Of a stretch of 64,000 nucleotides of DNA, positions 11,137 to 61,295 are shown in pieces. The notes under the pieces were generated by a model. It worked only from the letters and a program-made list of their open reading frames with translations. It searched no databases and had not been told where the DNA came from. The position numbers and the translations under genes were made by a program. The stretch is taken from NCBI GenBank assembly GCA_947084965.1, contig CAMTUG010000001.1, positions 147,914 to 211,913 of the forward strand, in the 5' to 3' direction. Position 1 is the stretch's first letter. Each line of letters starts with the position of its first letter. This DNA is from an uncultured Parcubacteria group bacterium (lineage in GTDB: Bacteria; Patescibacteriota; Patescibacteriia; UBA9934; CAMTUG01).

Positions 11137-11245
11137 TAAATCCGAAATTATAAATCCGAAATCCGAAACAAAATCGAAACGGAAAGAGAAAAACTTTTTC
11201 TCACTCTGATTTTCTCTTTGTTTCGGATTTCCACATTCGAATTTT
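11137..11245. repeat. AT-rich long palindromic repeat, family A, copy 1
   Basis: Left arm AAATCCGAAATCCGAAACAAAATCGAAACGGAAAGAGAAAA; right arm TTTTCTCTTTGTTTCGGATTTCCACATTCGAATTT. Lies between rpsB and tsf. Confidence 0.7.
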
Positions 11246-11252
11246 AATCAGT

Positions 11253-11849
11253 ATGGCAGAGATTACAGCCGCTGCCGTTGCGCAGCTTCGTGAGATGACT
11301 GGTGCCGGAATGATGGACGCCAAAAAAGCGCTCGTCGAGGCGGAAGGGGATTTGGAAAAAGCTGCGGACGCCTTGCGCAAGAGTGGGGTGATCAAAGCGG
11401 GGAAGAAGGCGGAACGCGAAACCAAAGAAGGACGCGTTCACAGCTACATTCACAGCAACGGTAAAGTCGGCGTTCTCGTCGAAGTGTTGTGTGAAACGGA
11501 TTTCGTGGCGCGCAACGAAGCGTTCATCGAACTCTGCAACGACGTCGCCATGCACATCGCCGCTGCCGATCCGTTGTATCTCATCCGCGATCAGGTTCCA
11601 GCCAACGTCGTAGAAAAGGAACGCGAAATGGCTCTGGCGGAGATGGAAGGACAGATGAAACCGCAAGAGATCATGGACAAGATTGTGGAAGGAAAATTGA
11701 GCAAGTATTTCGCCGATGTCGTATTGATGGAGCAGGTCTTCGTTAAAGACGATACCAAGTCGGTCGAAGAGTACGTCAAAGGAAAGATCACCACCCTCGG
11801 TGAAAACATCCAGATCCGACGCTTCGCCCGTTTTCTGCTCGGAGCGTAA
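11253..11849 (+). CDS. tsf: elongation factor Ts (short form)
   Basis: ITAAAVAQLREMTGAGMMDAKKALVEAEGDLEKA and TDFVARNEAF motifs. Classical rpsB-tsf pairing. Confidence 0.95.
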   Translation: MAEITAAAVAQLREMTGAGMMDAKKALVEAEGDLEKAADALRKSGVIKAGKKAERETKEGRVHSYIHSNGKVGVLVEVLCETDFVARNEAFIELCNDVAMHIAAADPLYLIRDQVPANVVEKEREMALAEMEGQMKPQEIMDKIVEGKLSKYFADVVLMEQVFVKDDTKSVEEYVKGKITTLGENIQIRRFARFLLGA

Positions 11850-11865
11850 TTCACCGGTTAACAAG

Positions 11866-11890
11866 AGCCGCCTTTACGGGCGGCTTTTGT
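11866..11890 (+). terminator. intrinsic terminator after tsf
   Basis: GCCGCCTTTACGGGCGGC + TTTTGTG. Confidence 0.6.
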
Positions 11891-11902
11891 GTTATAATTT
11901 TA

Positions 11903-11930
11903 ACGTTGCGGGGCGCAGTGGCCCCGCCTA
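11903..11930 (+). repeat. GC-hairpin repeat, family B, copy 1
   Basis: GCGGGGCGCAGTGGCCCCGCCTATC. The gap ATG follows 14 nt downstream. Confidence 0.65.
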
Positions 11931-11942
11931 TCACATTCTCCT

Positions 11943-14214: not shown

Positions 14215-14223
14215 TGCGTTGTT

Positions 14224-15348: not shown

Positions 15349-15354
15349 CGTTCT

Positions 15355-16620: not shown

Positions 16621-16701
16621 TTTGATTGAAGAAAAGTCTTCGCAAAGAGTGCGCGGAACAAGGTAGACGGGGATGGCACGAGCCGATACAATACCTCCAC
16701 T

Positions 16702-18267
16702 ATGGTGAAACCAGCAGTACTCATGGTGTTGGACGGTTGGGGCGTGGCCCCTGAAGGGGAAGGGAACGCCATTGTGACCGCCAACACCCCTGTTTTTGAT
16801 GATATTATCAAACGTTATCCGACGATGACCCTTCGCTCTTCAGGCGAAGAGGTCGGTTTGTCTTGGGGGGAGATGGGCAACTCCGAAGTTGGTCACTTGG
16901 CGATCGGAGCCGGGCGCGTCTATTATCAGATGCTTCCGCGCATTGATCGCGACATCGTGACCGGTGATTTTTTTGCAAATCCCGCATTGACTAAGGCGAT
17001 GACCGTTGGAAAAGAGAAAGCCCTGCATCTTGTCGGGCTTCTTTCACCTGGGCATGTACATGCTATGGACAGCCATTGTCATGCGCTGCTGAAGATGGCG
17101 GCAGATGCCGGAGTGAAGAACGTTTTTTTACACGTTATTTTAGACGGCCGCGATACGCTTTATAACGCTGGTCACGATTTTGTCACCACGTTGCAAACGA
17201 AGATGGCCGAAGTGGGGGTGGGAAAGATCGCCACGGTCGTCGGCCGTTTTTATGCGATGGATCGCGACAACCGTTGGGATCGCACCGGGAAGACGTACAA
17301 CATGATGGTCAAAGGCGAAGGTGAGGCAACGACAGAGGACGTCCTTGCTTCGATCAAGGCGTCGTACGCCAAAGAGGTGTATGACGAGCAGTTTCCGCCG
17401 ACCGTGGTGCTCGAAGGAGGCAAGCCGGTGGCTACAGTCAACGCGGGCGATGCGGTGATCTTCTTTAACTTCCGTCCTGATCGTGCCCGTCAATTGACCC
17501 GCGCGTTTGTCTTGCCTGACTTTGATAAGTTTTCTCGTCAGGCCGTTGAAAATCTCACGTTCGTGACCATGGCGGAATACGAAGCCGGACTCCCGGTTGA
17601 TGTTGCTTACCCACCGCAGAAGATCGTCAACACATTGGCCGAAGTGATCTCTCGACATGGGCTCAAACAGTTGCATATCGCTGAAACAGAAAAGTACGCC
17701 CACGTCACATTTTTTATGAACGGAACGCGCGAAGAGCCCTTTCCTGGGGAGGATCGCGTGATCATCCCGTCGCCGCGCGTTGCCAGTTACGACGAGGTGC
17801 CAGAGATGTCGGCCTATGCTCTAACAGATCGCGTCGTCAAAGAGGTTAAAGCTGGGACGTATGATCTGATCGTCCTGAATTTTGCCAACGGCGATATGGT
17901 CGGCCACACTGGCAATCTTCCGGCAACGGTGAAAGCCTGCGAAGCAGTAGACGAGTGCGTTGGCAACATTGTTTCGGCCACGCTGGAAGCGGGCGGGGTC
18001 GTCTTCGTCACTGCGGACCATGGGAATGCGGAGGAGGTTAAAAATCTGCAGACCGGGGACATGGACAAGGAGCATTCCACAAATCCGGTGCCCTTTTATG
18101 TGATCGGTGCTCAGTTCGAAGGGCAAGCTTCCCCTTCCGGAGAAGTTCCTGGCGGGGATCTTTCGCTGATGCCCCCGGTCGGGATGTTAGCCGACGTCGC
18201 CCCAACGATCCTTTCCGTTTTGGGGATTCCTCAGCCGGAAGAGATGACGGGTACACCCCTTATATGA
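16702..18267 (+). CDS. gpmI: 2,3-bisphosphoglycerate-independent phosphoglycerate mutase
   Basis: VLMVLDGWG N-terminus, TADHGNAE and other iPGM motifs. 521 aa. Confidence 0.9.
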   Translation: MVKPAVLMVLDGWGVAPEGEGNAIVTANTPVFDDIIKRYPTMTLRSSGEEVGLSWGEMGNSEVGHLAIGAGRVYYQMLPRIDRDIVTGDFFANPALTKAMTVGKEKALHLVGLLSPGHVHAMDSHCHALLKMAADAGVKNVFLHVILDGRDTLYNAGHDFVTTLQTKMAEVGVGKIATVVGRFYAMDRDNRWDRTGKTYNMMVKGEGEATTEDVLASIKASYAKEVYDEQFPPTVVLEGGKPVATVNAGDAVIFFNFRPDRARQLTRAFVLPDFDKFSRQAVENLTFVTMAEYEAGLPVDVAYPPQKIVNTLAEVISRHGLKQLHIAETEKYAHVTFFMNGTREEPFPGEDRVIIPSPRVASYDEVPEMSAYALTDRVVKEVKAGTYDLIVLNFANGDMVGHTGNLPATVKACEAVDECVGNIVSATLEAGGVVFVTADHGNAEEVKNLQTGDMDKEHSTNPVPFYVIGAQFEGQASPSGEVPGGDLSLMPPVGMLADVAPTILSVLGIPQPEEMTGTPLI

Positions 18268-18381
18268 AATACGAAATACGAAATCCGAAACAATTTATAA
18301 TGGTGAAAAGAGAAAACGGTTTTCAGATTCTGATTTTTCTCTTGTTTTGTATTTCGATATTCGAATTTCGAGTTTTGCCGT
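18268..18381. repeat. AT-rich long palindromic repeat, family A, copy 2
   Basis: AAATACGAAATACGAAATCCGAAACAATTT ... TTTTGTATTTCGATATTCGAATTTCGAG. Lies between gpmI and the PAP2 gene. Confidence 0.7.
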
Positions 18382-18888
18382 ATGTTAAAACTTGATTACA
18401 CCATCTCGTCTTGGCTTGACCAGCTGACCGACATGTCCCCATTTTGGGGCGATGTGGCGACGTTTTGCGCCCGTTACTTAGTGTTTGTGTTTGGTATCCT
18501 GGCCGTGTATGGACATCTGCAGTCATCACATCCGCAAGCACTGGTGTTGATGGTGGCTTCGTTGGCCCTCGGGTATGCAGTGACGATCGGGATCGCGTTT
18601 ACGGTGCGTCGTAAGAGGCCGTACGAATATCTGGGGGACATGAAGCATATGCGTCTGCCGGTTTACACCCCATCGTTTCCTTCGGGGCACGCCACGCTTG
18701 CTTTTGCCATCGCTGGGAGCTTTATCGGATCATACAGCGGAATCATTTTACCGATCGTCCTGATCATCGCCACGGTCATCGCCGTTTCCCGGGTGATCGT
18801 CGGGGTACATTATGTCAGTGATATTCTGGCCGGCGCGGTCATCGGCCTTGCCGCGAACTGGTTTATCGGCACACACATTATTTTATGA
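18382..18888 (+). CDS. PAP2-family membrane phosphatase (undecaprenyl-diphosphatase-like)
   Basis: PAP2 signature motifs KRPYEY...PSGH...SRVIVGVHYVSD. Confidence 0.8.
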   Translation: MLKLDYTISSWLDQLTDMSPFWGDVATFCARYLVFVFGILAVYGHLQSSHPQALVLMVASLALGYAVTIGIAFTVRRKRPYEYLGDMKHMRLPVYTPSFPSGHATLAFAIAGSFIGSYSGIILPIVLIIATVIAVSRVIVGVHYVSDILAGAVIGLAANWFIGTHIIL

Positions 18889-23762: not shown

Positions 23763-24194
23763 ATGAATCACATCTCGGAGGAAAAGTTTGTGGCAAGCAT
23801 GCAGGGGGTAGAAAACCGCTTTCAGCAGATGGATAACCGTTTTGAGCAAATCGATAATCGCTTTCAGCTGGTGGATAACCGTTTTCAACAGGTGGACAAA
23901 CGATTCGAACAAATCGATAACCGTTTTCAACAGGTGGATAATCGTTTACAGCAGGTTGATAAGCGTTTTGAGCAGGTTGATAAGCGTTTAGACACGCTCG
24001 AGTTTCAGGTAAAGGGATTGAGAGACGATATTCGACAGGTTGAGGATAAGATGGACGTTAAGTTCGATACGATCATCAACATGCTCGATCGAGACACCCG
24101 ATGGAAAACGGACACCGAAGCTGAGGTTGCTGCGGCCCATGCGAGAATCGATCGTGTCGAAGTGCAACTTGCGCTCAAGCCAACGACGCCATAA
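23763..24194 (+). CDS. heptad-repeat coiled-coil protein (8x [I/V]D[N/K]RF[E/Q]Q)
   Basis: 21-bp tandem DNA repeats at about 23818-23985 encode MDNRFEQ IDNRFQL VDNRFQQ VDKRFEQ ... Confidence 0.55.
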   Translation: MNHISEEKFVASMQGVENRFQQMDNRFEQIDNRFQLVDNRFQQVDKRFEQIDNRFQQVDNRLQQVDKRFEQVDKRLDTLEFQVKGLRDDIRQVEDKMDVKFDTIINMLDRDTRWKTDTEAEVAAAHARIDRVEVQLALKPTTP

Positions 24195-24261
24195 GGATGC
24201 CTGGGTTACGAGGTTTTTGGCGGGGTCAGTGACCCTGCTTTGTGTTATAATCATCGGGCAT

Positions 24262-26388
24262 ATGAAGGAATTTATGCTCTCGGGCGGAGCTCCGGACGTG
24301 CCCAAGATTGATTACCAAAACGAGCTAAACGCAGAGCAGCTCGAAGTGGTGTTGAACGGCGATGGGCCGTGTTTGGTATTGGCCGGAGCGGGTTCGGGGA
24401 AGACACGGACGATCACGTATCGCGTGGCCTATTTGCTCGAGCAAGGGGTGCGACCAGATGAGATTCTGCTTTTGACCTTCACCAACAAGGCGGCCAAAGA
24501 GATGATGGAGCGCATCACCCACTTGCTCGGGTCGGTGCCGTACGGACTGTGGGGCGGGACGTTCCATTCGATCGGGAACCGCATTTTGCGTCAGTATGCC
24601 AACGTCATCGGCTACCAATCGAACTTCACGATCATGGATCACGATGATTCTGTGGATCTGGTGAAGATCGTCATTAAGGATTTAAAGATTGATACCAAGG
24701 AGAAGCGTTTTCCTTCGGCCGCCGTCGTACACGCGATTATTTCGTATAGTCGCAACGCCAAGATGTCGATCGAAGAAACGGTCGAGACGAAGTACTCTCA
24801 ATTTGTTGATGACAGTTCGACGATCGCGCGGATCGCGGCGCAGTATGAATCGCGCAAGCGCACCGGGAACACGATGGACTTTGATGACTTGTTGTTGCTC
24901 CTCGCTGATCTTTTAGCCACAAATCCACAAGTAAAAAATGCGCTTGCGACACGATTCCGCTATGTGTTGGTGGATGAGTATCAGGATACGAACGTGATTC
25001 AGGCGCGGCTAGTCAATGATCTCTCGAGTGTGCATCGCAATCTGCTCGTGGTCGGCGACGACGCTCAGTCGATCTATTCCTTCCGGGCGGCAGAGATCAG
25101 AAATATTTTAGGATTTCCGAACGCCCACTCGGGGGCCAAGACGTTCCGTCTGGAGACAAACTATCGTTCCACGCCAGAAATTTTGTCCCTGGCCAACTCG
25201 ATCATCGAACAGAACACGGACCAGTTTTCTAAAGAGTTGATCGCGGTGCGTGACGCATTTGAAAAACCAAACTTGATTCCAACGTCAGACACGCGCCAAG
25301 AGGCGCAGTACATTAGCGAGCAGATCGTCCAGATGATCGATAAGGGGATGCCGCTTTCTGAAATTGCCGTCTTGTTCCGCGCCGCGCATCACTCGCAAGC
25401 ATTAGAAATGGAGCTGTCGCGCCGCAACATTCCGTACGAGTTCCGCGGTGGGATGAAGTTTTTTGAACGCGCGCATATCAAGGACGTGGTTTCTTACATT
25501 CGTTTGATCGCTAACCCCAAAGACGGGATGGCTTGGATCCGTGTGCTGTCGCATCAGGTTGGAATTGGGGCGGTGACCGCGACCAAGATTATGGAGGTGA
25601 TGCAGAATTTTGAATCGATCGCTCAGGCGCTCGAAGCGGATTCAACGGGGTTCGTGCCAGGGCGCAGTTCGTCTGGCTGGCGATCCCTGACATCCGTCCT
25701 CAACTCGATGCACAAAACGGATCGCCAGCCGTCGTCGTTGATTCGCATTGTCGCTACCTCTGCCTATCAAGATTACTTGAACGCCGAGTATCCAAATGCG
25801 GCGGAGCGGTTGGAAGATATCGAACAGTTCGCCATTTTTTCAGAGCAATATTCTGACCTGTCGCAATTCTTGGAAGAAGTTTCACTTAAAGACGACTACG
25901 GCGCGGTGCAAGAAGAGGGTGGATACAAAGAAGAGCGGATGATTCTGTCGACGATTCATCAGGCTAAGGGACTTGAGTGGAACGCGGTTTTTGTGATGAA
26001 CTTGACCGACGGAGCCTTCCCGCATCCTCGGGCACTCAGTGAAGCGGGAGGGATCGAGGAAGAACGTCGCTTGTTCTATGTCGCCACCACGCGCGCGCGC
26101 AAGCATCTCTTTCTCACGTATCCAATTACCAGCGGGTATGAAACAATGGAGGTGCGCCAGCCGTCAATGTTCCTCGACGAGTTACCAAAAGGGTTGCTTG
26201 AGGAGGTGCGCGTCAAACGTCCGGCCGCGTCCTATCTTTCTTCACCTCGCGATTTGGGATCAAAAAGTCGTTGGGGGGAGAGTAGTGATGAGGAGTATGA
26301 CGAACCGACGATCGTTCTTGATGGGATGGGGGAGGTAAAGAAGGCTCCGCCGCGGACCGGGTTTTTGCGTTCTATCGATGAATTATGA
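24262..26388 (+). CDS. UvrD/PcrA-family ATP-dependent DNA helicase
   Basis: Walker A (AGAGSGKTRTI), DEYQDTN, and SF1 motifs through TIHQAKGLEW / YVATTRAR. Confidence 0.9.
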   Translation: MKEFMLSGGAPDVPKIDYQNELNAEQLEVVLNGDGPCLVLAGAGSGKTRTITYRVAYLLEQGVRPDEILLLTFTNKAAKEMMERITHLLGSVPYGLWGGTFHSIGNRILRQYANVIGYQSNFTIMDHDDSVDLVKIVIKDLKIDTKEKRFPSAAVVHAIISYSRNAKMSIEETVETKYSQFVDDSSTIARIAAQYESRKRTGNTMDFDDLLLLLADLLATNPQVKNALATRFRYVLVDEYQDTNVIQARLVNDLSSVHRNLLVVGDDAQSIYSFRAAEIRNILGFPNAHSGAKTFRLETNYRSTPEILSLANSIIEQNTDQFSKELIAVRDAFEKPNLIPTSDTRQEAQYISEQIVQMIDKGMPLSEIAVLFRAAHHSQALEMELSRRNIPYEFRGGMKFFERAHIKDVVSYIRLIANPKDGMAWIRVLSHQVGIGAVTATKIMEVMQNFESIAQALEADSTGFVPGRSSSGWRSLTSVLNSMHKTDRQPSSLIRIVATSAYQDYLNAEYPNAAERLEDIEQFAIFSEQYSDLSQFLEEVSLKDDYGAVQEEGGYKEERMILSTIHQAKGLEWNAVFVMNLTDGAFPHPRALSEAGGIEEERRLFYVATTRARKHLFLTYPITSGYETMEVRQPSMFLDELPKGLLEEVRVKRPAASYLSSPRDLGSKSRWGESSDEEYDEPTIVLDGMGEVKKAPPRTGFLRSIDEL

Positions 26389-28361: not shown

Positions 28362-29588
28362 CTACAACTCGTGATCGTAATGCCAGCCGCTGGAACGCGT
28401 TTTGAACTCGACTCCTAAGAGAGAGGCGCGTGTCCACGACCCTGATCCATACCGGGACTGAATTTTATCCAAGGCAGAAGTTGCGCTGAGCAATCTCTGT
28501 TCTTTTTTAAACAATGATCGCGCTTCAGCACCAGTGCAAAGCTGGCTGGCGGTGATGCCGATCAGGCGCACAGGGTGATCGAGATCGTTTTTGATTAAAC
28601 TCCAACCGATCTCGGCCAGTTTGGCGCCGTCGGACGTTGGTTCAGCAAAGCGATGCTCGCGGCCAAATCCGCCCAAGTCGCCGAAGCGTACGTAGGCAGA
28701 AACAGAACGAGCGACAAGTCCGTCTCGGCGCAATCGCCAAGCGACTTTGTCGGCGAGTGCCAGCAGTTGCCGCTTAATATCGCGCGGGTCATCTAAATCA
28801 CGCGGCATCGTATACGAATGACCAACAGATTTCGGTGCTGCCTCGCTACTGGCAACAGGGGAGTCGTCGCGACCAAAGGCCGCCTCATGTAACCACCAGC
28901 CCCAACTTTTAAACTCTTGTACCAGGAGCTCGCGCGGATAGCGGCGCAATTGTTCAACAGTAAAAATGCCCAGATCGGCCAGATGCTCCTGTGTGCGCCG
29001 GCCGATTCCGGAGATATCCTCAAGTTCGCAAGATCCAACAAAGTCGAGCACCGCTTCTGGCCGCACAACGGTTAGGCCGTTTGGTTTGTGGGAGCCAGCA
29101 GCGAGTTTAGCGATTAACTTATTCGGCCCGATGCCAACCGACGCCGTAATTCGTTCACCGCACTCTTCTGCCAATCGCGCACGAATCGTCTGGGCCAGCA
29201 TCATTGCTCCAAAGTAGTCACGTGCGGCGTGGGTGACATCAAGATAGCTTTCGTCTACGCTCGCTGGCTCAACCTGGTCCGTATAGTCGCGATAAATCGC
29301 ATTGAACCGAGCGGTAATCTCGGAATACTTTTCTGGATCTCCCGGAATAATAATCAAAGAAGGACAGATGCGTCGTGCTTCCCAGGTCGACATTGCTGTT
29401 TTCACTCCAAGCCGTTTGGCTTCAACAGATGCTGTAGCCACGATCGTGCGTTGGGCCTGATCCGCTCGTGAAGGATCAAAACTCTTGCCACTGACCCCAA
29501 TCGGCTTGCCACGCAAAAACGGATTCGCTTGCTGTTCAACGCTCGCGAAGTACGAGTTCATGTCGATGTGCATGATGATGCGATCCAT
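28362..29588 (-). CDS. dinB: DNA polymerase IV (Y-family)
   Basis: IMHIDMNSYFASVE, SVDESYLDV and other UmuC/DinB motifs. Confidence 0.9.
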   Translation of the reverse strand: MDRIIMHIDMNSYFASVEQQANPFLRGKPIGVSGKSFDPSRADQAQRTIVATASVEAKRLGVKTAMSTWEARRICPSLIIIPGDPEKYSEITARFNAIYRDYTDQVEPASVDESYLDVTHAARDYFGAMMLAQTIRARLAEECGERITASVGIGPNKLIAKLAAGSHKPNGLTVVRPEAVLDFVGSCELEDISGIGRRTQEHLADLGIFTVEQLRRYPRELLVQEFKSWGWWLHEAAFGRDDSPVASSEAAPKSVGHSYTMPRDLDDPRDIKRQLLALADKVAWRLRRDGLVARSVSAYVRFGDLGGFGREHRFAEPTSDGAKLAEIGWSLIKNDLDHPVRLIGITASQLCTGAEARSLFKKEQRLLSATSALDKIQSRYGSGSWTRASLLGVEFKTRSSGWHYDHEL

Positions 29589-29716
29589 AAGGGAGTGGAT
29601 AGTGATATCGACGGAGGAGGTTCGAGCTGACGAGTTCTCTTTTCGCGCGCAGCCCTTATCCTTTCTTCGGGGTCGAGCACGAAAAGAGTGTCAGCGAGAC
29701 CGAGTACGGCGATATC

Positions 29717-29965
29717 TTATCCATCACAATACATTTCGGTTAATCGCCACTCGAGCAATTCTGGATCCAGTTTTAACTTAAACGCGTTGGCATCATCAGA
29801 GACAGAGAAGTAGAATAAACGCTTCGTCCCTTCGCGGCCAGGGTGCACCAGGTTCACATGCTTAATGTCATACATCTGGTTTTGCCAACGCATCTTCAGC
29901 GGCCGCACGCGGTTTTTGGTGAACGTGACGATCACGTCCACCGGGTCGTTCAAAAACGTGTGCAT
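29717..29965 (-). CDS. hypothetical small protein in the lexA-dinB operon
   Basis: 82-aa ORF co-oriented between lexA and dinB, ending 129 nt upstream of the dinB start. No known motif. Confidence 0.45.
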   Translation of the reverse strand: MHTFLNDPVDVIVTFTKNRVRPLKMRWQNQMYDIKHVNLVHPGREGTKRLFYFSVSDDANAFKLKLDPELLEWRLTEMYCDG

Positions 29966-29966
29966 A

Positions 29967-30158
29967 TTAAATGTGCGCTAAGATCCCGCGGACGATCTGC
30001 TTAAACTTGCGGCGGCTGGTGTGTACCCGCAGCATCTTGCGCGCATGTTGAATCCGGCGCAGGGACTTGGTTGGCATGAACGAAACGGTCGAACCGTAGT
30101 AGCGAAGAATGGCTTCAGACATAGAGTTTTGTATAGGCGGGGCCACTGCGCCCCGCAT
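29967..30158 (-). CDS. hypothetical small basic protein in the lexA-dinB operon (true start probably the internal Met at 30122)
   Basis: 51-63 aa, Arg/Lys-rich. The first 12 codons of the long form overlap the family-B hairpin repeat. Confidence 0.35.
   Translation of the reverse strand: MRGAVAPPIQNSMSEAILRYYGSTVSFMPTKSLRRIQHARKMLRVHTSRRKFKQIVRGILAHI
30126..30152 (-). repeat. GC-hairpin repeat, family B, copy 2 (inverted orientation)
   Basis: Minus-strand reading GCGGGGCGCAGTGGCCCCGCCTATAC, downstream of lexA. Confidence 0.65.
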
Positions 30159-30210
30159 GAGTTAACAAATTTAATCAACCGTACATGGGCGTACCTTTGC
30201 CTCCGTTGAA

Positions 30211-30837
30211 TTATGCCGTCGCAAATTTACGAATCACTCCGCGTACAATTCCTTGGATGTTGATGTCACCGTTCACGATAATCGGCTGCATGGTCGAGTT
30301 AGCTGGTTGCAGACGAATGTGGGTTGATTCACGGTAGAAGCGTTTGAGTGTGGCGTAAGCGTTGTCGAGGAGCGCCACGACGATGTCTCCGTTCTTTGGT
30401 GAAGGGTTGCGTTCGATGATCACGTAGTCGCCGTCGAAAATTCCATCTTCGATCATCGAGCGCCCTTTGACTTTGAGCACATACGAGTTGGTCTGATCGA
30501 TCACAAAGTCGCTCGGCACCGCTATCGCTTCACGCTGTTCGACCGCTTCGATCGGTTCACCGGCGGTGATCAGCCCCGAGAGCGGGAGCATGATCGCCAA
30601 TGGGTGTGATTCCACGCGGTTCATCGGGTGCGACAGGCTGAGCGACCGCGCTTCGCCTTCTTCGCTCCCGGTCAGGAACCCTTTGTCGATCAGCGCCTGG
30701 ACGTGCTGGTGCACGGTGGCAGGGGAGGAGAGCTCGAACGCGTCGGCGATTTCGCGGTACGTCGGCGCATACCCGTTCTCTTCGATCTGGTTCCTGATGA
30801 ACTCCAGGATCTCGGATTGTTTCTTTGTCAGCGCCAT
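30211..30837 (-). CDS. lexA: LexA repressor (S24 peptidase)
   Basis: N-terminal wHTH (LTKKQSEILEFI...YREIAD). Cleavage-site and Ser/Lys dyad motifs (VKGRSMIEDGIFDGD...; KRF). Confidence 0.9.
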   Translation of the reverse strand: MALTKKQSEILEFIRNQIEENGYAPTYREIADAFELSSPATVHQHVQALIDKGFLTGSEEGEARSLSLSHPMNRVESHPLAIMLPLSGLITAGEPIEAVEQREAIAVPSDFVIDQTNSYVLKVKGRSMIEDGIFDGDYVIIERNPSPKNGDIVVALLDNAYATLKRFYRESTHIRLQPANSTMQPIIVNGDINIQGIVRGVIRKFATA

Positions 30838-30849
30838 AAGTTATGTGAT

Positions 30850-30906
30850 TCGCCCGTTCGGCTTATGTTCGTACTATAGACCGAACAAAAACCGAACGCA
30901 AGCGAT
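30850..30906. promoter_or_regulatory. candidate SOS operator: two GTTC-N7-GTTC direct repeats in inverted arrangement upstream of lexA
   Basis: Plus strand GTTCGGCTTATGTTCG-tactatagac-CGAACAAAAACCGAAC. In lexA sense this reads GTTCGGTTTTTGTTCG. It sits about 30-80 nt upstream of the lexA ATG and overlaps a TATAGT -10-like hexamer. Confidence 0.4.
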
Positions 30907-30962
30907 AGGGTGGGGATAAGTTTCAAAGTGGTACTATTACAGACATGTTTAGTTAGTTAAGT

Positions 30963-32213
30963 TTGTCTGTGTCGTATTCGGATGTTTTAAAAAAGTTTCT
31001 CTGGATGCTGTTTGCCTGGGTTTTTGGGCTTACGATTTTTGGTATCACTTTTGCCATAACAGAGATTCCTCAGCCCTGGCTTATGATAGTTGTGGCAGGG
31101 GTTGTTATCCTTGTTGCAGCACAGTTGATGTATTCAACAATAAGTGATCTTGAGAGTAAATTTAAAAAGGAAATTTCCGCGATTGAAGGTGGGGCAAACT
31201 CAATAATCATCGCGGCAGAAAAGTTCAAAGTTAGTGCTGAAGAAGATGCGGCGCTTTGGAAGAAAACACTTTTGGAACGAAGTAGTGGCTTCCCAAGTCT
31301 TGTTGACTTGATTGGGGAGTATGAAAAGCTTCGTGATCAGAAAGATGAATACTATTTAAATAGAAAGTCTCATCCGGCGCATCGGGCTGCAGACTTAGTT
31401 GCGGAGCATTCGAGATTAAGACGCGAGGCGGAACGTAAGAGACGTCAGATTCAGGCGATCATCGAATATTATGAAAGTATCGCTCCGTTTCTTCTTGATT
31501 TTAAGGAACAGGAGTTTGGCGACCTTGATGCAGAGAACACATTGGCTGACTATACGCCAGAAGAGCAGCAAGATCCGGTAACGCAATATTTGGTTAAGGA
31601 CGAGTACAGAAGTCTTTCTTCTACCGAGAGAAATCAGCGTGCGCTCGATAGGTTCTGGTCACGACCAAAGTCAAATTGGATGATTGGTCGTTTGTACGAA
31701 CGATATGTTGGATACTTATTTGAAGCTGATGGCTATGATGTCGAATACTACGGTATTTTTAAGGGGTATGAGGATCTTGGTCGGGATTTGATTTGTAGGA
31801 AAGGGAAACAGGTCGTGATTGTACAGTGCAAGAACTGGTCGAAGTTTAAAACTGTTTTCGAGAATCACATCTTTCAGTTTTTCGGGACCGTATTTTATTT
31901 CCGTGACCAGAACCGCGATAGAGATGTATCCGCGGCATTTTATTGCACAACATCCGTTTCAGACTTTGCTCGCAGATTTGCATCTGAGCTGGGCGTCAAG
32001 CTTTTTGAGAACCACGTTTTCGATCGGTCCTACCCATGTATAAAATGTAATATCTCGTCAGGTGGTGAAAAGATTTACCATCTTCCATTTGATCAACAGT
32101 ATGACAATGTTAAGATCGAGGTCCATAAAGGCGAGTTTTATTGCAAGACTGTACAAGAAGCCGAAAAAGCCGGATTCAGAAGGGCTTTTCGGTGGGCAGG
32201 TTTGAAACAGTAG
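30963..32213 (+). CDS. membrane-anchored coiled-coil protein with C-terminal Mrr-cat (PD-(D/E)xK restriction-endonuclease-like) domain
   Basis: Two N-terminal TM helices and a long charged helical region, then RLYERYVGYLFEADGYDVEYYG...DLGRDLICRKGKQVVIVQCKNW typical of the Mrr catalytic fold. Cys-containing C-terminal tail. TTG start. Confidence 0.65.
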   Translation: MSVSYSDVLKKFLWMLFAWVFGLTIFGITFAITEIPQPWLMIVVAGVVILVAAQLMYSTISDLESKFKKEISAIEGGANSIIIAAEKFKVSAEEDAALWKKTLLERSSGFPSLVDLIGEYEKLRDQKDEYYLNRKSHPAHRAADLVAEHSRLRREAERKRRQIQAIIEYYESIAPFLLDFKEQEFGDLDAENTLADYTPEEQQDPVTQYLVKDEYRSLSSTERNQRALDRFWSRPKSNWMIGRLYERYVGYLFEADGYDVEYYGIFKGYEDLGRDLICRKGKQVVIVQCKNWSKFKTVFENHIFQFFGTVFYFRDQNRDRDVSAAFYCTTSVSDFARRFASELGVKLFENHVFDRSYPCIKCNISSGGEKIYHLPFDQQYDNVKIEVHKGEFYCKTVQEAEKAGFRRAFRWAGLKQ

Positions 32214-32265
32214 GCGGTTCCTTGGGTGCTCAGTCAAGTGTTAATCGGTGGTAGAATATAAGCCT

Positions 32266-32619
32266 ATGAGTGACATCAAAAAGCTCCAGGATGAGGTCGT
32301 GGCCTTTCGGGATGCGCGCGACTGGAAGCAGTTTCACAAGCCGAAGGATTGTGCAATTTCGTTGACGCTTGAGGCGGCGGAAGTTGCCGAACTCTTTCAG
32401 TGGAAAAACGATGAAGAGATTGATGCCTATCGTCCAGGCGGCGCAAAGCACGACGACATTAGTGATGAACTCGCGGACGTGATGTACTGGGTGCTTTTGC
32501 TTGCCAATGACTTCGGTGTCGACTTAGATGAAGCTTGGAGTCGCAAGATGGCGAAGAATGATGCGAAGTATCCGGTCGATAAAGCGAAGGGATCGCATAA
32601 AAAATATACTGAACTCTAG
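32266..32619 (+). CDS. MazG-like all-alpha NTP pyrophosphohydrolase
   Basis: EAAEVAELF...DELADVMYWVLLLANDFGVDLDEAWSRKMAKNDAKYP are MazG/NTP-PPase EExxE and D-E motifs. Its stop lies 3 nt before the DUF2075 start. Confidence 0.7.
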   Translation: MSDIKKLQDEVVAFRDARDWKQFHKPKDCAISLTLEAAEVAELFQWKNDEEIDAYRPGGAKHDDISDELADVMYWVLLLANDFGVDLDEAWSRKMAKNDAKYPVDKAKGSHKKYTEL

Positions 32620-32622
32620 TTT

Positions 32623-41064: not shown

Positions 41065-41796
41065 GTGTTATACTTCTTGCGATATATGAAAGGAACACTC
41101 GGGCTTGTAACGGTGATCATGATTTTTGCAGGAACGTTGTTTGTGATCGTCACAGAACATCCAGAAGGGCGTCGTGTGACGAGCGAAGACGGTCGCGTGA
41201 CACTCGAAGGCGAACTTACTCCCGAGGCACAGATCTCGATCGAGAGCGCTCCGCACGGAGTCGGACCGTGGACCGCAGTGATTGCTGGGGAGTACCAAGC
41301 GTTCCCTTCGGATTTTGTTTTGACCACGCCTCTCACCGTCAGCTTCACCTATGCAACCGAAGATCTCGGCGGGGCAGATCCTCGTGCACTGCGTGTCGGT
41401 TTTTATGATGAGGAGTTTGGCATGTGGCGGACGGTGCCGACAGCGATTGCGGATAATGCTGCCTCTGCGCTGATCTACAATTTTGACGCGCTGTTCGCCC
41501 TTTTACTGATGGATGCTGTTGCTGTACCAAATTTTGAAGTCGAGATCGCCGAGCTTCTTTCCGCTGCTCCGGATGAAGCCGTAGGATATGAACTCGTTGT
41601 GGCGTACGCTCAAGTGCCGGGGGATTTTGTGATCCTTGAAGGTACGACCCAAAGTGGTGGATGCGGTGGGCGGTATCGTATCGGAGAATCAACGACGATG
41701 ACGTCGATCGGGGACAAATTTGGTGACGGACTTGAGTATCAGATTATGGTGATTTGGCAGTTGGGCGAAGGGTGCGGAAGAGCGATGATTCAATAA
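41065..41796 (+). CDS. hypothetical membrane-anchored protein
   Basis: N-terminal TM (LGLVTVIMIFAGTLFVIV) plus an extracytoplasmic domain. Confidence 0.5.
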   Translation: MLYFLRYMKGTLGLVTVIMIFAGTLFVIVTEHPEGRRVTSEDGRVTLEGELTPEAQISIESAPHGVGPWTAVIAGEYQAFPSDFVLTTPLTVSFTYATEDLGGADPRALRVGFYDEEFGMWRTVPTAIADNAASALIYNFDALFALLLMDAVAVPNFEVEIAELLSAAPDEAVGYELVVAYAQVPGDFVILEGTTQSGGCGGRYRIGESTTMTSIGDKFGDGLEYQIMVIWQLGEGCGRAMIQ

Positions 41797-41928
41797 ATAC
41801 GAAAATCGAAATTCGAAACAAATTCGAAATGAAAATAGGAAAACGTTAAACCTGTTTCAACATTTCCGATTTTCTATTCTGAGTTGTTTCGAATTTCGAC
41901 TTTCGGATTTTGTATTTATAGAAACAAC
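41797..41928. repeat. AT-rich long palindromic repeat, family A, copy 3
   Basis: AAATACGAAAATCGAAATTCGAAACAAATTCGAAATG ... GAGTTGTTTCGAATTTCGACTTTCGGATTTTGTATTT. Lies between convergent genes. Confidence 0.7.
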
Positions 41929-47577: not shown

Positions 47578-48798
47578 ATGGAAGAAGCGGCATTGTCGGT
47601 CGGACAATTTATTCAGATCATCAACGAAACGCTCCGCCAAACGTTTGCCGGGCCTTTTGTGATTGAGGGGGAGATTTCAGGCTACACGGTGAAGGACGGG
47701 AAGTGGATTATTTTTAGTTTGAAAGATGAGGCTGAAGCGAATACGAAGTTGAAATGTTTCGCCACGGTCTACAAAGTGAGTGGAAGTTTTGAAGATGGGA
47801 TGCGGGTGCGGGTGTCGGGGATGCCAAGCGTAAAGCAGTGGAGTGATTTTCAGCTTGATGTGCAGCAGATGGAACCGGTGGGGGAGGGGGCGCTCAAACG
47901 GGCCTATGATCTGCTCAAGAAAAAACTTGAAGCAGAAGGATTGTTTTCAATCGCGCGCAAGAGAGAGATTCCAAAGTTTCCAGAACGCATCGGATTAATC
48001 ACCTCGAGTGACGCCGCTGCGTACGGAGACTTTTTGCGTATCTTGAATAATCGTTGGGGCGGAGTAACCGTTTTGCACGCCAACGTGCGGGTGCAAGGGA
48101 AAGAAGCGGTCGGCGAAATTTTGCAGGCGTTTCAAGCCTTTGGGTCTTTGTCGAAGAACGAACGACCTGATGTGATCGTTTTGACGCGCGGTGGTGGATC
48201 GCTTGAGGACTTGCACTCCTTTAATGATGAGCAGGTCGCCCGGGCGGTGTACGGCTCCTCGATCCCGGTTGTCTGCGGCGTTGGTCATGAGCGCGATGAA
48301 TCGCTCTGTGATTTTGTTGCTGATGTGCGCGCTTCAACGCCGAGTAATGCGGCGGAGCGTGTGGTACCGGATCGCCGCGATGTTTCGTACGCTCTGAACA
48401 TGATGATCGAACGGATGGGGGACCGCCTGCACCGCACGATCGATGACCGCAAGAACGTGATCGATTCCGCCATGCGATCGATCACCCACGTGATGGAGCG
48501 ACAGAAGGCGAGTGTGGATCATATCGTCCAGCGACTGCTCTTGCGCACCGGAGGATGGACAGCCCAGATTCGTCAGTCGGTTGAAGCATCGGAGCGCCTG
48601 CTCAAGAACGTGGATCCGACACGTGTCCTCTCTCGTGGCTATTCCATTGTGAAGATCGGCGAGAAAGTCATCAAAGATGCGAGCGAGCTTGAGGCTGGGG
48701 CTATGATTGAGGTAACATTGGGGCGCGGAGGATTTGAGGCGGAAATAGGGAAAATCCGAAATCCGAACTTCGAAACAAATTCGAATCGGAAATCGTAA
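47578..48798 (+). CDS. xseA: exodeoxyribonuclease VII large subunit
   Basis: OB-fold N-terminus (FVIEGEISGY...), catalytic region (GLITSSDAAAYGDF, RGGGSLEDL) and coiled C-terminus. The last about 18 codons are encoded by a family-A repeat. Confidence 0.85.
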   Translation: MEEAALSVGQFIQIINETLRQTFAGPFVIEGEISGYTVKDGKWIIFSLKDEAEANTKLKCFATVYKVSGSFEDGMRVRVSGMPSVKQWSDFQLDVQQMEPVGEGALKRAYDLLKKKLEAEGLFSIARKREIPKFPERIGLITSSDAAAYGDFLRILNNRWGGVTVLHANVRVQGKEAVGEILQAFQAFGSLSKNERPDVIVLTRGGGSLEDLHSFNDEQVARAVYGSSIPVVCGVGHERDESLCDFVADVRASTPSNAAERVVPDRRDVSYALNMMIERMGDRLHRTIDDRKNVIDSAMRSITHVMERQKASVDHIVQRLLLRTGGWTAQIRQSVEASERLLKNVDPTRVLSRGYSIVKIGEKVIKDASELEAGAMIEVTLGRGGFEAEIGKIRNPNFETNSNRKS

Positions 48799-48875
48799 GT
48801 TTGAAAATGCTTTCCCCCCTTTCCTATTTTCCGATTGTTTCGGATTTCGATATTCGAGTTTCGTATTTATAATCA
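48745..48875. repeat. AT-rich long palindromic repeat, family A, copy 4 (overlaps the xseA 3' end)
   Basis: GAAAATCCGAAATCCGAACTTCGAAACAAATTCGAATCGGAAATCG ... TTTTCCGATTGTTTCGGATTTCGATATTCGAGTTTCGTATTT. Confidence 0.7.
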
Positions 48876-48878
48876 TCT

Positions 48879-49079
48879 ATGCCAAAAAAGGAAATCAATT
48901 TTGCCAAAGCGTTCGAGGAGTTGGAGGCGATCACCGAATGGTTTGAGCAGGACGGCGCCGATCTTGATGAAGGTTTGAAAAAGTTCGAACGCGGTCTCGA
49001 GCTGGCCAAACTGTGCAAAGAAAAGTTAGCAGAAGTGGAGAATCAGGTCGAGATGATCAAAAAGAAATTTGTTGAATAG
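48879..49079 (+). CDS. xseB: exodeoxyribonuclease VII small subunit
   Basis: FEELEAITEWFEQDGADLDEGLKKFERGLELAKLCKEKL is typical XseB. Confidence 0.85.
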   Translation: MPKKEINFAKAFEELEAITEWFEQDGADLDEGLKKFERGLELAKLCKEKLAEVENQVEMIKKKFVE

Positions 49080-50239: not shown

Positions 50240-50248
50240 AGTTTTAAG

Positions 50249-51172: not shown

Positions 51173-51272
51173 TGACACCTAGAGCTAAGGTTCATCGATA
51201 AACCCCCGCCTGGTTAGGATTATTTCATCACATTTCGACGATTTTGTCAACCGTGCTTTTGTGGATATTACC

Positions 51273-53417: not shown

Positions 53418-53505
53418 ACAACAAGTCTAGCATTGACCCCCTGATTCCTATTCCTGTACATTATACGGCATGGGGGAGTAAGGGCAATACCTGATTGAAT
53501 ACTAT

Positions 53506-54132: not shown

Positions 54133-54134
54133 CT

Positions 54135-54530: not shown

Positions 54531-54605
54531 TAAGCGGTAAGTAGTAAGCAGAGAAACAAGTGTCTCCACTTACCACGTACCAATTACTCATAACCAAAAA
54601 GACCT

Positions 54606-55286: not shown

Positions 55287-55291
55287 TTGAT

Positions 55292-56770: not shown

Positions 56771-56787
56771 ACTTGACCTCCTCACCG

Positions 56788-56850
56788 CTACGCAGAATCC
56801 CGTCACGACATAGATTCTTGGTCATTAATGTCGTGACGGGATTCCGCTCC
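56788..56850. repeat. palindromic repeat, family C, copy 2 (inverted relative to copy 1)
   Basis: GCAGAATCCCGTCACGACAT-agattcttggtcatta-ATGTCGTGACGGGATTCCGC. The loop is the reverse complement of the 5035 copy's loop. Confidence 0.6.
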
Positions 56851-56934
56851 GCGGTTCGGAGGGCACAAGTTAGCCCCAACGCGGAGCAGACTTCGACCAG
56901 CGACATTAAATGACTAAAAAGATGTCGCGGGTCG

Positions 56935-58983: not shown

Positions 58984-58988
58984 CCCTT

Positions 58989-59993
58989 ATGTTCTCCAAA
59001 AAAATCGCCATCGACCTCGGAACCACGACCGTGCTGGTGTACATGCCCAAGCGCGGTATTATTATCCATGAACCGTCGGTCGTGGCTATTTCAACGATCG
59101 ATAAAAAAGTGTTGGCCGTAGGGAAAGAAGCCAAAGACATGCTCGGTCGCACTCCAGACACGATCGTGGCCAAGCGGCCGCTCAAAGACGGGGTGATTGC
59201 TGACTACAAAACAACCGAAGCGATGCTCCGTTATTTTATTAACAAAGCGCTCGGGGGGATCCGCTTGTTCCGTCCAGAAGTGATGGTCGCTGTTCCTGGC
59301 GGGATCACCTCGACCGAGCGCCGTGCAGTGATCGATGCTGCAGTTTCGGCTGGAGCCAAAGCGGCCTACATCATCAAAGAACCGATCGTCGCCGCGATCG
59401 GCGCTAACATTCCGATCGGCTCACCGAGCGGACATATGGTGATCGACATTGGTGGTGGGACGGCCGAGATGGCGGTGCTTTCGCTCGGGGGGATCGTCTC
59501 TTCTGCTTCCGTGCGCATCGGCGGGGTCAAAATTGACGCCGCGATTCAGGAATTCATTCGCCGCAAGTATGGGTTGGCGATTGGCGAGCGCACTAGCGAA
59601 GAGATTAAGATCAAAATTGGTTCAGCGATGTACCTGCCCGAAAAGATGACGCTTGAAATCAAAGGCCGCGACATGATTAGCGGTTTGCCAAAGTTTTTAG
59701 AAGTCACAAGTGACGATGTGACCGAAGCGATTCAAAACGAACTTGAGGGGATTATTGCGACGGTGAAAGAAGTGTTGCACAAAACGCCGCCGGAACTGTC
59801 TGCGGACGTGATGGACAAGGGGATCGTGCTGACCGGGGGATCATCACAGCTGCGTAATTTGGATCAGCTGATCGCCGAAGCGACCGGCGTGCCGACCTAC
59901 GTCGCGGATGAACCGCAGATGTGCGTGGCTAAGGGAACGGGGATCGCGCTCGAAAATTTGGAAGCGTACAAGCGAAGTGTATTTAGCTCTTAA
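58989..59993 (+). CDS. mreB: rod-shape determining actin homologue MreB
   Basis: IAIDLGTTTVLVY...EPSVVA... DGVIAD... GGGTAE are actin-fold phosphate/adenosine motifs. Confidence 0.9.
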   Translation: MFSKKIAIDLGTTTVLVYMPKRGIIIHEPSVVAISTIDKKVLAVGKEAKDMLGRTPDTIVAKRPLKDGVIADYKTTEAMLRYFINKALGGIRLFRPEVMVAVPGGITSTERRAVIDAAVSAGAKAAYIIKEPIVAAIGANIPIGSPSGHMVIDIGGGTAEMAVLSLGGIVSSASVRIGGVKIDAAIQEFIRRKYGLAIGERTSEEIKIKIGSAMYLPEKMTLEIKGRDMISGLPKFLEVTSDDVTEAIQNELEGIIATVKEVLHKTPPELSADVMDKGIVLTGGSSQLRNLDQLIAEATGVPTYVADEPQMCVAKGTGIALENLEAYKRSVFSS

Positions 59994-60112
59994 ATTCGAA
60001 ATACGAAATTCGAAATTCGAAATAAACTCGAATCGAAAATGGGAAGTTTGAAAATTTTCACTCCTTCCTCTTTTCCGATTGTTTCGGATCTCGGATTTCG
60101 AATTTCGTATTT
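59994..60112. repeat. AT-rich long palindromic repeat, family A, copy 5
   Basis: TAAATTCGAAATACGAAATTCGAAATTCGAAATAAACTCGAATCGAAAATGGGAAGTTTGAAAA ... TTTTCCGATTGTTTCGGATCTCGGATTTCGAATTTCGTATTTAT. Confidence 0.75.
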
Positions 60113-61156
60113 ATGACCACCTTTGGTATAGAAGTCAATCCTGCATCCCGCGAGCAGAAGACGGGGACCGAGTGGTACACCGTTAAGCTGGTCGAAGCGA
60201 TGCAAAAGCAGGTGCGTCCTGGCGACGAGGTACGGTTGTATTCGCGTGAGAATTTGAAATGGCCGTTCAAGCGATTATGGACTCAGCTTCGGTTGAGTTG
60301 GGAAATGCTCCGTCGTCCACCGGATGTGTTGTTCGTGCCGGCCCACGCCGTGCCGCGTGTGCATCCGAAAAAAACGGTGACGACCGTTCATGACCTAGGG
60401 TTTAAACGGTTTCCTCATTTGTATGAATCAAAGGCGCGTCGCTATTTAGAAGCGACGACCAAGTTTGCGGTAAAGAAGTGTGCAAGAATTATCACACCGT
60501 CGGAGTTTACAAAGCACGAGTTGGTCGAGTTGTATCACGCCGATCCGGACAAGATTGTCGTCACTCCGCTCGCCCCGATCATGTCTCCGCTTACCACTAA
60601 CCAATTACCACTTTCCCATACCTTTCTGACAATGTCGCGCATCGAGTCAAAAAAGAATATCGCCGCACTTATCCGCGCCTTTGAGATTTTTAAGGAGCGC
60701 CGTGGGGTAGGGGATCCGTTCGAGTTGTATCTTGCCGGCAAACCAGGATTTGGCTACGGCGCGATCAAACAGTTGATCGATCGTTCACCAGCACGGGCGT
60801 CGATTAAGGAACTCGGTTTTGTGACCGATGAACAGGCCCGCAATCTTTTTGCGAGTGCCTATGCCTATGTCTATCCTTCTTGGTACGAGGGATTTGGAAT
60901 CAGCGCCGTCGACGCCATGCAATTTGGGACGCCGATCATCGCCAGCAACATTCCAGCGCTGCACGAAGCCGCGGGCGAAGCAGCGGTGTATTTTGATCCC
61001 AACTCACCGCAAGAACTCGCTCGGCACATGTCCGAGCTGGCAGATAATCCAACGCTGCGCAATGAACTTGCACAAAAGTCTCTTGTCCAAGTCGCCCAGT
61101 TTTCTTGGGAAAAAACAGCAGAGCAGACGTGGGGAGTTTTACGTTCGTTGACTTAA
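60113..61156 (+). CDS. family-1 (GT4) glycosyltransferase
   Basis: C-terminal ...YPSWYEGFGISAVDAMQFGTPIIAS... is the EX7E GT4 signature. Confidence 0.8.
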   Translation: MTTFGIEVNPASREQKTGTEWYTVKLVEAMQKQVRPGDEVRLYSRENLKWPFKRLWTQLRLSWEMLRRPPDVLFVPAHAVPRVHPKKTVTTVHDLGFKRFPHLYESKARRYLEATTKFAVKKCARIITPSEFTKHELVELYHADPDKIVVTPLAPIMSPLTTNQLPLSHTFLTMSRIESKKNIAALIRAFEIFKERRGVGDPFELYLAGKPGFGYGAIKQLIDRSPARASIKELGFVTDEQARNLFASAYAYVYPSWYEGFGISAVDAMQFGTPIIASNIPALHEAAGEAAVYFDPNSPQELARHMSELADNPTLRNELAQKSLVQVAQFSWEKTAEQTWGVLRSLT

Positions 61157-61295
61157 ATTCGAAATACGAAATCCGAAATACGAAACAAATTCGAACTGGA
61201 AAAGGGAAGTTTGCAAACGTTCTCCCGTTTCCTTTTTCCGATTGTTTCGTATTTCGATATTCGGATTTCGTATTTTCCTGCTATACTAAACCTAT
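61157..61295. repeat. AT-rich long palindromic repeat, family A, copy 6
   Basis: TAAATTCGAAATACGAAATCCGAAATACGAAACAAATTCGAACTGGAAAAGGGAAGTTTGCAAA ... TTTTTCCGATTGTTTCGTATTTCGATATTCGGATTTCGTATTTTCC. Confidence 0.75.

Follow-up and report, generated by a model that had tools for sequence, protein, structure and literature searches.

Polar hairpin repeats built from CGAANNN heptads in an uncultured Parcubacteria bacterium, with counterparts in phages and in genomes under more than eight phylum labels

The repetitive extragenic palindromic (REP), ERIC, Correia, and RUP repeats of bacteria are normally limited to a genus or family and are tied to a lineage-specific transposase. ERIC elements (also IRU, from Enterobacterales and Vibrio) and Correia elements (CREE/NEMIS, from Neisseria) are imperfect palindromes of about 100-150 bp, present in many intergenic copies and often located within operons, where they are co-transcribed in two orientations and where the folded transcript can alter the fate of the mRNA. 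The attC sites of integrons lie at the 3' ends of genes and are imperfect palindromes 57-141 bp long; they are recognized as folded single strands, and extrahelical bases set the functional strand. REPs are 20-40 nt long, usually GC-rich, and tagged with GTAG or CGTC (PMC3733652), and they are the lineage-specific partners of one RAYT gene (PMC3116915, PMC2817692). Heptamer repeats of the TAACTGA type occur in Beggiatoaceae, Cyanobacteria, and Bacteroidetes, with a patchy distribution across phyla and a transfer mechanism that is not known (PMC4679880). The repeat family described here was found in 64,000 nt of DNA from an uncultured Parcubacteria group bacterium (assembly GCA_947084965.1, contig CAMTUG010000001.1, positions 147,914 to 211,913; the whole stretch is called the window). 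It is present there in six copies, numbered below in order of position, and consists of a non-coding, hairpin-forming element of about 105-140 bp made of 7-nt CGAANNN units.

The six copies probably belong to one family of non-autonomous mobile repeats that form hairpins, are mobilized in trans, and are propagated as whole elements. An earlier note on this DNA had reported at least six copies and had called them a MITE/REP-like family, after the miniature inverted-repeat transposable elements (MITEs). Both statements hold, as all six are present at the places given, align with each other, share their arm structure, and are recognized by one model. This covariance model, R1, was built from 22 elements of other organisms and used no window sequence. 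It finds exactly six matches in the window (70-98 bits, E 2e-12 to 5e-18), the next-best match reaching 12 bits (E = 4). The unit CGAAATNCGAAA, with at most one mismatch, occurs 27 times in the window versus 4.5 +/- 2.1 times in shuffles, a six-fold excess, and 26 of these occurrences lie inside the six elements. Tandem Repeats Finder called period-7 arrays in every copy, and an inverted-repeat search placed the arm pairs of five of the six among the top inverted repeats, the exception being the copy at 48745. In a MAFFT alignment of the six copies the mean column identity is 64% and the arms are conserved. The GC content of the elements is 28-37%, versus about 53% on average in the window. 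Two Logan contigs from the same sample (L001 and L125, run ERR3478686) independently contain copy 1, copy 5, and a portion of copy 6, the sequence of copy 5 being identical in L001. By its EF-Ts homologues, the bacterium falls within Patescibacteria, close to Uhrbacteria.

From the outside inwards, the element comprises an AAATY terminus, three to four CGAANNN heptads, the anchor CGAAACAAAT, looser A-rich heptads, and an AAAC...GTTT apex, and this order is mirrored on the other side. The consensus begins with AAATTCGAAGCA and ends with CGGATTT, each arm being a heptad array of about 35 nt or more. CGAA recurs at a strict 7-nt spacing and the three bases between the anchors are variable, the common units being CGAAATC, CGAAATT, CGAAGCA, CGAATAT, and CGAAACA. 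The tandem CGAAAT(A/C) units of the earlier note are real, but the strict CGAA-anchored grammar of 7 nt had been missed. In the window, the left arm of each copy holds three to four CGAANNN units, mostly CGAAATC, CGAAATT, or CGAAATA, of which the inner one, CGAAACA, is invariant except in copy 5 (CGAAATA). A centre of 48-64 nt follows, and then the mirrored TGTTTCG (NNNTTCG)3-4. The left arm of copy 1, for example, reads AAATC CGAAATT ATAAATC CGAAATC CGAAACA, and its right arm, as the reverse complement, AAATT CGAATGT GGAAATC CGAAACA.

The two arms are not equivalent. Type A reads AAATT-CGAAGCA-CGAAATC-CGAAATY-CGAAACA and type B reads AAATC-CGAAATY-CGAATAT-CGAAATY-CGAAACA; among elements typed by these same units, 28 arm pairs are heterotypic and 7 homotypic (Fisher p = 0.002). 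A difference of 10-30 bits between the strands is also seen in elements that R1 was not trained on, and polarity is therefore a property of the family. The plus strand scores higher for copies 1, 2, 4, 5, and 6 of the window, while copy 3 is nearly symmetric and was given no polarity. The B signature is found on the right arm as CGAATAT in copies 2, 4, and 6 and as CGAATGT in copy 1. The copies had been described as palindromes with complementary arms; the arms are indeed inverted, but they differ in a conserved way and make the element polar. The idea that the two arms are kept complementary within each element was rejected, since they behave as independent versions: identical triplets at corresponding units are rarer than in shuffled pairings (22 vs 30.5, 2 vs 7.1, and 5 vs 9.3), and the complementarity between the two arms of an element does not exceed that between arms taken from different elements.

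Both RNA and DNA folds of the window copies are predicted to be long imperfect hairpins. The RNA-fold z is -4.9 to -6.1 for four of them (copy 1, -4.85; copy 3, -4.98; copy 5, -6.07; copy 6, -5.80) and about -1.5 for the other two, and the DNA-fold z of copy 6 is about -6.2 to -6.5. In alignment A2, which holds 22 oriented sequences, 80.6% of the outer-arm cells are paired. Pairing is missing at columns 18-20/127-129 in 20-21 of the 22 sequences and at columns 12-13/134-135 in 15-18. The unlike A and B arms thus give a folded single strand conserved 3x3 internal loops and a polarity, and such loops are visible in the predicted fold of the element at locus L031. Compensatory covariation was not detected: the score lies below that of 495 of 500 shuffles, and RNAalifold reports 0 compensatory pairs.

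Across many lineages, and also in phages, a polar, heptad-built element with sharp boundaries has been inserted into many unrelated sites, and the insertions have left no target duplication. Two relatives of the bacterium (L121 and L123; EF-Ts 76% identical) preserve the gene order and are element-free across 13-20 kb. The rpsB|tsf junction without the element measures 47 bp in L121 and 21 bp in L123, and the iPGM|PAP2 gap is reduced to 4 bp in L121. At these two window sites, empty in the relatives, the elements are insertions. The ends are sharp (AAATYCGAA...TTCGRATTT); in an alignment anchored at the outermost unit, AAA is conserved at 83-93%, T and Y follow, and one base farther out conservation has fallen to background. 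Target-site duplications, proposed earlier as a check, were not found among 87 elements, whose two ends share direct repeats of 1-8 nt no more often than shuffled partners do, nor do these insertion sites prefer TA. The missing duplication argues against a classical DDE-type MITE; it is compatible with a single-strand mechanism like that of IS200/IS605, but does not show it. Upstream open reading frames (ORFs) are truncated by, or extended into, the left arm in the cases of xseA, a phage portal gene, and a small phage ORF. The flanks generally do not prolong the hairpin, although 6 of 78 elements lie inside another palindrome against an expected 2%; continuation of the hairpin into the flanks, or insertion into the centres of larger palindromes, was therefore discarded as a general rule.

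The distribution of the family was followed with the gapped pattern CGAAATNCGAAA-N50-80-TTTCGNATTTCG, which matches at least 119 loci in the GTDB species representatives. All matches listed are records of metagenome-assembled genomes (MAGs) or single-amplified genomes. Among them are genomes labelled as Planctomycetota (Gemmataceae, Tepidisphaeraceae, Phycisphaerae, and Brocadiaceae), Verrucomicrobiota/Lentisphaerae, Omnitrophota, Desulfobacterota, "delta proteobacteria", Acidobacteriota, many classes of Patescibacteria, Chloroflexi, Nitrospirota, and Fibrobacteres, so that genomes with more than eight different phylum labels share a consensus. Some of the carrier contigs are 0.8-4 Mb long, with the labels Gemmataceae, Planctomycetia, Doudnabacteria, Holophagae, and delta-proteobacteria on Mb-scale contigs, and because of this length such labels can hardly be binning errors. 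A suspected label conflict between L047 and L059, which share the same match coordinates, was dismissed, as their sequences are unrelated. The likeness extends beyond the search pattern to the flanking units CGAAGCA and CGAATAT, the anchor, the A-rich inner heptads, and the apex, and the order of distinct heptads is kept across genomes. R1 scores reach 142 bits on loci of other organisms, and nhmmer detects 150 elements in about 0.9 Mb of locus sequence. The earlier note had recognized the related palindromic repeats in the window and had missed this cross-phylum spread.

Seven IMG/VR contigs also match the gapped pattern. Two unrelated phage contigs (L126 and L127) carry the element in a head-gene operon with terminase, portal, capsid, or S49 protease genes; the portal gene of L126 ends inside the left arm, and so does a small ORF following the portal gene of L127. 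Exact scans with the flanks, together with a locus search based on proteins, were used to look in IMG/VR for empty-site alleles of these phage copies; apart from distant relatives, they brought back nothing but the two contigs themselves. A distant-mode BLAST of the consensus element gave no match among PLSDB plasmids and INPHARED phages, where the low-complexity filter may have masked the query. With Rfam 15, a tRNA-Ser is the sole hit in the window at the gathering threshold, and at E <= 1 four loci gave only sub-threshold models of plant miRNA-precursor hairpins. A full-text literature search for literal element sequences yielded primer coincidences only. In the searchable literature on heptamer repeats, short tandemly repeated repetitive (STRR) sequences, and repeats of Patescibacteria or Planctomycetes, analogues were present and no matching description was found.

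Copies 4-6 are 79-86% identical to each other (copy 6 and copy 5, 86%) and are a young subfamily within the window; their shared centre, reported earlier, is borne out, with CGTAAGTTTGAAAA in place of GGGAAG in copy 4. For copies 1-3, identity is 63-74% when they are compared with the rest of the window copies and about 73-76% against the best-matching elements of other genomes. Over 103 full-length elements the median identity is 0.74 within a genome vs 0.69 between genomes (p = 0.0009). Identity climbs to 84-90% between elements of different genomes whose flanks are unrelated, for example between sequences labelled Parcubacteria and Desulfobacterales or Deltaproteobacteria, or between a Doudnabacteria and a delta-proteobacterium sequence. 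The weak clustering within genomes and the high identity across phyla suggest either strong sequence constraint or repeated horizontal introduction.

Each of the known systems shares part of this picture. In its workings the element comes closest to repeats of the ERIC/Correia and REPIN types, but it departs from each of them in defining traits. With ERIC and Correia elements, compared here by description, the element has in common a size of about 100-150 bp, an imperfect palindrome, intergenic position, many copies, and occurrence within operons; each of those families, however, stays within a single order or genus, duplicates its TA target on insertion, and has no heptads, whereas the element occurs in many phyla, causes no duplication, and follows the CGAANNN grammar. 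The REP/REPIN-RAYT system likewise offers an inverted doublet, a hairpin of about 100 nt with conserved mismatches, no target duplication, extragenic position, and high copy number, and by this analogy a single-strand recognition is plausible; unlike REPs and REPINs, the element is AT-rich, has no GTAG or CGTC tag in its consensus, and is common to more than eight phylum labels. A classical MITE is also short, non-coding, and multi-copy (six copies in 64 kb here), with inverted arms, but the element lacks flanking target-site duplications. With attC it shares the imperfect palindrome at gene 3' ends and the arm asymmetry; its consensus, by contrast, has no RYYYAAC/GTTRRRY cores, and its neighbours are housekeeping genes and not a cassette array beside intI. 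Finally, the STRR and TAACTGA repeats are also tandem 7-nt intergenic units, often just before start codons and in ribosomal-protein operons, and are patchy over phyla. They are, however, direct arrays of one heptamer, while the element is a unit of about 125 bp with several ordered heptads in two unlike inverted arms; the STRR units CCCCAGT, TTGGTCA, and CAACAGT, and TAACTGA, are absent from it, and its hosts are other phyla.

The element thus matches the kind of the miniature palindromic intergenic repeats, and there is a real chance that it forms a new class. A more far-reaching proposal, which is put forward tentatively and may well prove wrong, is that it represents an undescribed class of mobile DNA: a polar CGAANNN hairpin of about 125 bp that spreads between phyla and into phages by a duplication-free route other than the known ones of insertion sequences or MITEs, perhaps via a conserved host function or a heptad-reading protein, and within a wider class of heptad hairpins. 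That wider class could include the cyanobacterial STRR and the TAACTGA repeats.

Other heptad repeats were seen in the loci examined. Inverted arrays of the types ACCAGNN/NNCTGGT, CGAACAT/TGAACAT, CAGAGNN, GCTGAGT, CGAATGA, CACGAAT, and GTCAGAN occur at L010:5110-5400 and 6590-6700, L042:3600-3730, L103:1360-1470, L119:2682-2830, L024:1650-1723, L005:6800-6905, and L059:355-520, and some of them enclose a CGAAAT element as if it were nested. Arrays of CCAGNNN, CGAACAT, CAGAGNN, and CGAATGA units were seen beside the element in other genomes. The arrays suggest that heptad hairpin repeats make up a broader class in these uncultured bacteria. A variant built on TACGAAA(N) units with an irregular spacing of 8-12 nt is found at L062:3930-4045, where it occupies the rpsH|rplF spacer, and also in L030, L078, L082, L087, and L097; it was matched by the same gapped pattern, and its carriers are MAGs labelled Patescibacteria and Bacteroidetes. 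At L042:120-560, a CGAAAT-type element of 190 nt with an expanded centre forms the middle of a much larger inverted repeat whose arms are about 125 nt each (GGTAATTTTTATACTGCTGG...CCAGCAGTATAAAAATTACC); this is a composite element, or else the CGAAAT-type element has inserted into a different palindromic repeat.

The window copies, whose ends were refined by reading the sequence and with R1, occupy almost the whole of the spacers between their flanking genes. These genes were confirmed by Pfam analysis, which gave the pairs S2|EF-Ts, iPGM|PAP2, hypothetical|MFS (convergent), XseA|XseB, MreB|GT4, and GT4|TrmB-like. Copy 1 (11137-11245, plus strand; R1 70.5 bits on the plus and 54.4 on the minus strand) lies 3' of rpsB (stop TAG, 11133-11135) and 5' of tsf (ATG 11253). 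Copy 2 (18267-18376, plus; 82.8 and 65.8 bits) separates the iPGM gene (stop TGA, 18265-18267) from a PAP2-family gene (ATG 18382), and the final A of this TGA is the first base of the element. Copy 3 (41795-41917, no strand assigned; 90.0 and 90.4 bits) stands between two convergent genes: a hypothetical ORF at 41065-41796, the TAA of which runs into the start of the element, and an MFS transporter gene on the minus strand that ends at about 41933. Copy 4 (48743-48869, plus; 78.1 and 70.2 bits) lies between xseA (end 48798) and xseB (ATG 48879). Reading of the xseA frame bears out the claim that one copy supplies its C-terminal codons: the left arm provides the last 18 and the stop (...EIGKIRNPNFETNSNRKS*). 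Copy 5 (59992-60112, plus; 84.2 and 81.2 bits) makes up the entire spacer between mreB (stop TAA, 59991-59993) and a GT4 gene, whose ATG (60113) directly follows the last element base. Copy 6 (61155-61275, plus; 97.6 and 79.9 bits) connects this GT4 gene (stop TAA, 61154-61156) with a gene for a TrmB-like regulator (ATG 61296). The terminal AAAT is overlapped by the upstream stop codon in copies 2, 3, 5, and 6. By eye, no recognizable Shine-Dalgarno sequence precedes the ATG of the five genes starting just 3' of an element (11245-11255, 18376-18384, 48869-48881, 60105-60115, and 61275-61298); tsf of two relatives is likewise without one, also by eye.

Placement and orientation were also surveyed in the wider family, on the basis of crude ORF calls. 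About 78 elements lie between 61 tandem, 8 convergent, and 9 divergent gene pairs, against a background of 482/106/109. The A-to-B direction agrees with that of the flanking genes in a ratio of 45:23 (p = 0.01). The most reliable ORF calls are those of the low-GC subset, and there the ratio is 21:16, which is not significant. No link of element orientation with local GC skew was detected in a weak test on 8-kb pieces. Copies are found inside units that must be co-expressed, namely rpsB-tsf and xseA-xseB in the window and rpsH-rplF in other Patescibacteria. The rpsH|rplF junctions of three Patescibacteria-like genomes hold a full element, a TACGAAA-type variant, and half an element, respectively.

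An activity in trans that recognizes the heptad arrays and/or the asymmetric hairpin would move the element, and because of the missing duplication and the hairpin, an enzyme acting on folded single-stranded DNA (HUH/Y1-like, or a recombinase) would be favoured over a DDE transposase. Once inside an operon the element would be transcribed, and its insertion would be tolerated, as the hairpin joins the upstream stop to the downstream start and brings no terminator with it. A secondary effect on mRNA processing or stability may follow, as with ERIC and Correia elements. The cognate transposase that the earlier note had suggested looking for was absent from the 20 window ORFs scanned, the whole genome not having been searched, and no transposase is present in the gene families recurring beside the element (126 loci). 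No RAYT (Y1_Tnp) gene was seen in the scanned parts of the 64 kb and within at most 8 kb of other copies, in a search that was not exhaustive. No arm pair encloses a gene in about 0.9 Mb of loci. When 840 neighbouring ORFs were clustered, the only enriched families were common ones (histidine kinases, ABC ATPases, short-chain dehydrogenases/reductases, epimerases, and ribosomal proteins).

Several observations weigh against mobilization in trans as a full account. Copies within a genome are barely closer than copies across phyla, which is unlike a recent MITE burst and could mean that mobility is not the whole cause and that a functional sequence is strongly constrained. The phylum labels were assigned by those who deposited the MAGs. 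The co-direction of A-to-B with the genes (45:23) could point to a role at the RNA level. The exact junctions are not proven, as the nearest relative is only 76% identical in EF-Ts and no filled/empty pair from close strains is at hand. Finally, no transposase or other mobilizing gene was found, with neither all 840 neighbouring ORFs nor the remaining genomes scanned. The most serious of the rival explanations is that of an RNA element selected by the host, serving as an mRNA processing or stability site (e.g., a substrate of RNase III or RNase E/Y) or as a translational coupler, and with CGAA(A/U)N heptads read by a conserved RNA-binding protein. The significant stability of the hairpins (z -5 to -6 for four window copies), their position within co-transcribed units, abutting stop and start codons, the 2:1 bias of A-to-B along transcription, followed by five of the six window copies, and the precedents of ERIC and Correia all speak for it; in addition, conservation across phyla as high as within genomes is expected under constraint. 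It is nevertheless considered unlikely as the primary explanation. The stems show no compensatory covariation by any of the measures given above, and their arms are no more mutually complementary than those of different elements; one third of the oriented copies point the opposite way, the orientation bias is absent from the low-GC subset, and no Rfam family matches. Because such a role would also leave the arrival at new sites unexplained, it was retained only as a secondary one, and a secondary role in processing or cistron coupling, which is possible, would fit the 2:1 orientation bias.

The strict 7-bp CGAA period with three variable positions recalls the ribbon-helix-helix protein omega, which polymerizes on the heptads of pSM19035, and the element could by the same token be a double-stranded DNA binding array, with operator- or centromere-like sites for a protein that polymerizes on 7-bp repeats and acts in nucleoid organization or regulation. 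Two distinct, conserved arm types that are independent draws from one grammar and not mutual complements agree with such a function. This explanation is given a somewhat smaller chance than the RNA element, as no candidate protein has been identified and the lineage-specific presence in essential operons and phages fits a selfish element better than a host regulon; it is compatible with mobility, since the binding protein could be the transposase itself. Less credit still is given to bidirectional intrinsic terminators, the function proposed in the earlier note. In favour of it, the elements form palindromic hairpins, rich in A on the 5' arm and in T on the 3' arm, and follow gene 3' ends, in one window case between convergent genes. 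Against it, the elements, at 28-37% GC, have AT-rich stems with conserved internal loops, and consensus scans of copies 1, 5, and 6 revealed neither a GC-rich stem with a T-run nor a promoter site. They are neither enriched between convergent genes nor depleted between divergent ones, and they are present within the rpsB-tsf, xseA-xseB, rpsH-rplF, and phage head operons, so that this proposal was not upheld. As for unrelated AT-rich hairpins or chance low-complexity matches, AT-richness is the only point that favours them, and they were refuted by the motif enrichment, the heptad order conserved across genomes, and the R1 matches (E 1e-12 to 1e-26, with no other match in 64 kb), which leaves them a negligible probability. 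A family of hairpin-forming repeats mobilized in trans remains the probable explanation.

The window also holds other features. A 21-nt tandem repeat of 8.7 copies, or a 63-nt super-unit repeated 2.9 times (GGTGGATAACCGTTTTCAGCA), is located at 23807-23989 within an ORF (23763-24194), upstream of and overlapping the start of a UvrD-like helicase ORF (24040-26388); its 7-codon period suggests a repetitive coiled-coil-like peptide. The region 28362-34476, with a lower GC content of 0.47-0.48, encodes a Y-family polymerase (IMS), LexA, a protein with an Mrr-like nuclease domain, a MazG-like protein, and a Schlafen-group-3-type helicase, and is probably an SOS or defence island. At 56774-56865, a GC-richer inverted repeat that is unrelated to the heptad family (38-nt arms, 82% complementary, 16-nt loop) separates a GT2-like ORF (end 56770) from a DUF4012 gene (start 56935) and may be a real terminator or another repeat.

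The identity of up to 84-90% between genomes labelled as different phyla, the kept order of units, and the asymmetry of the arms, together with the occurrence in phages, point either to frequent transfer of a tiny parasite across phyla or to a conserved machinery that reads a 7-nt code. In either case, the family would provide a handle on gene flow among uncultured groundwater and soil bacteria, on how the ultra-compact operons of Patescibacteria withstand insertions, and on the old question of what generates the heptamer repeats of bacteria. As these repeats can break short-read assemblies, they should be masked or modelled in MAG annotation.

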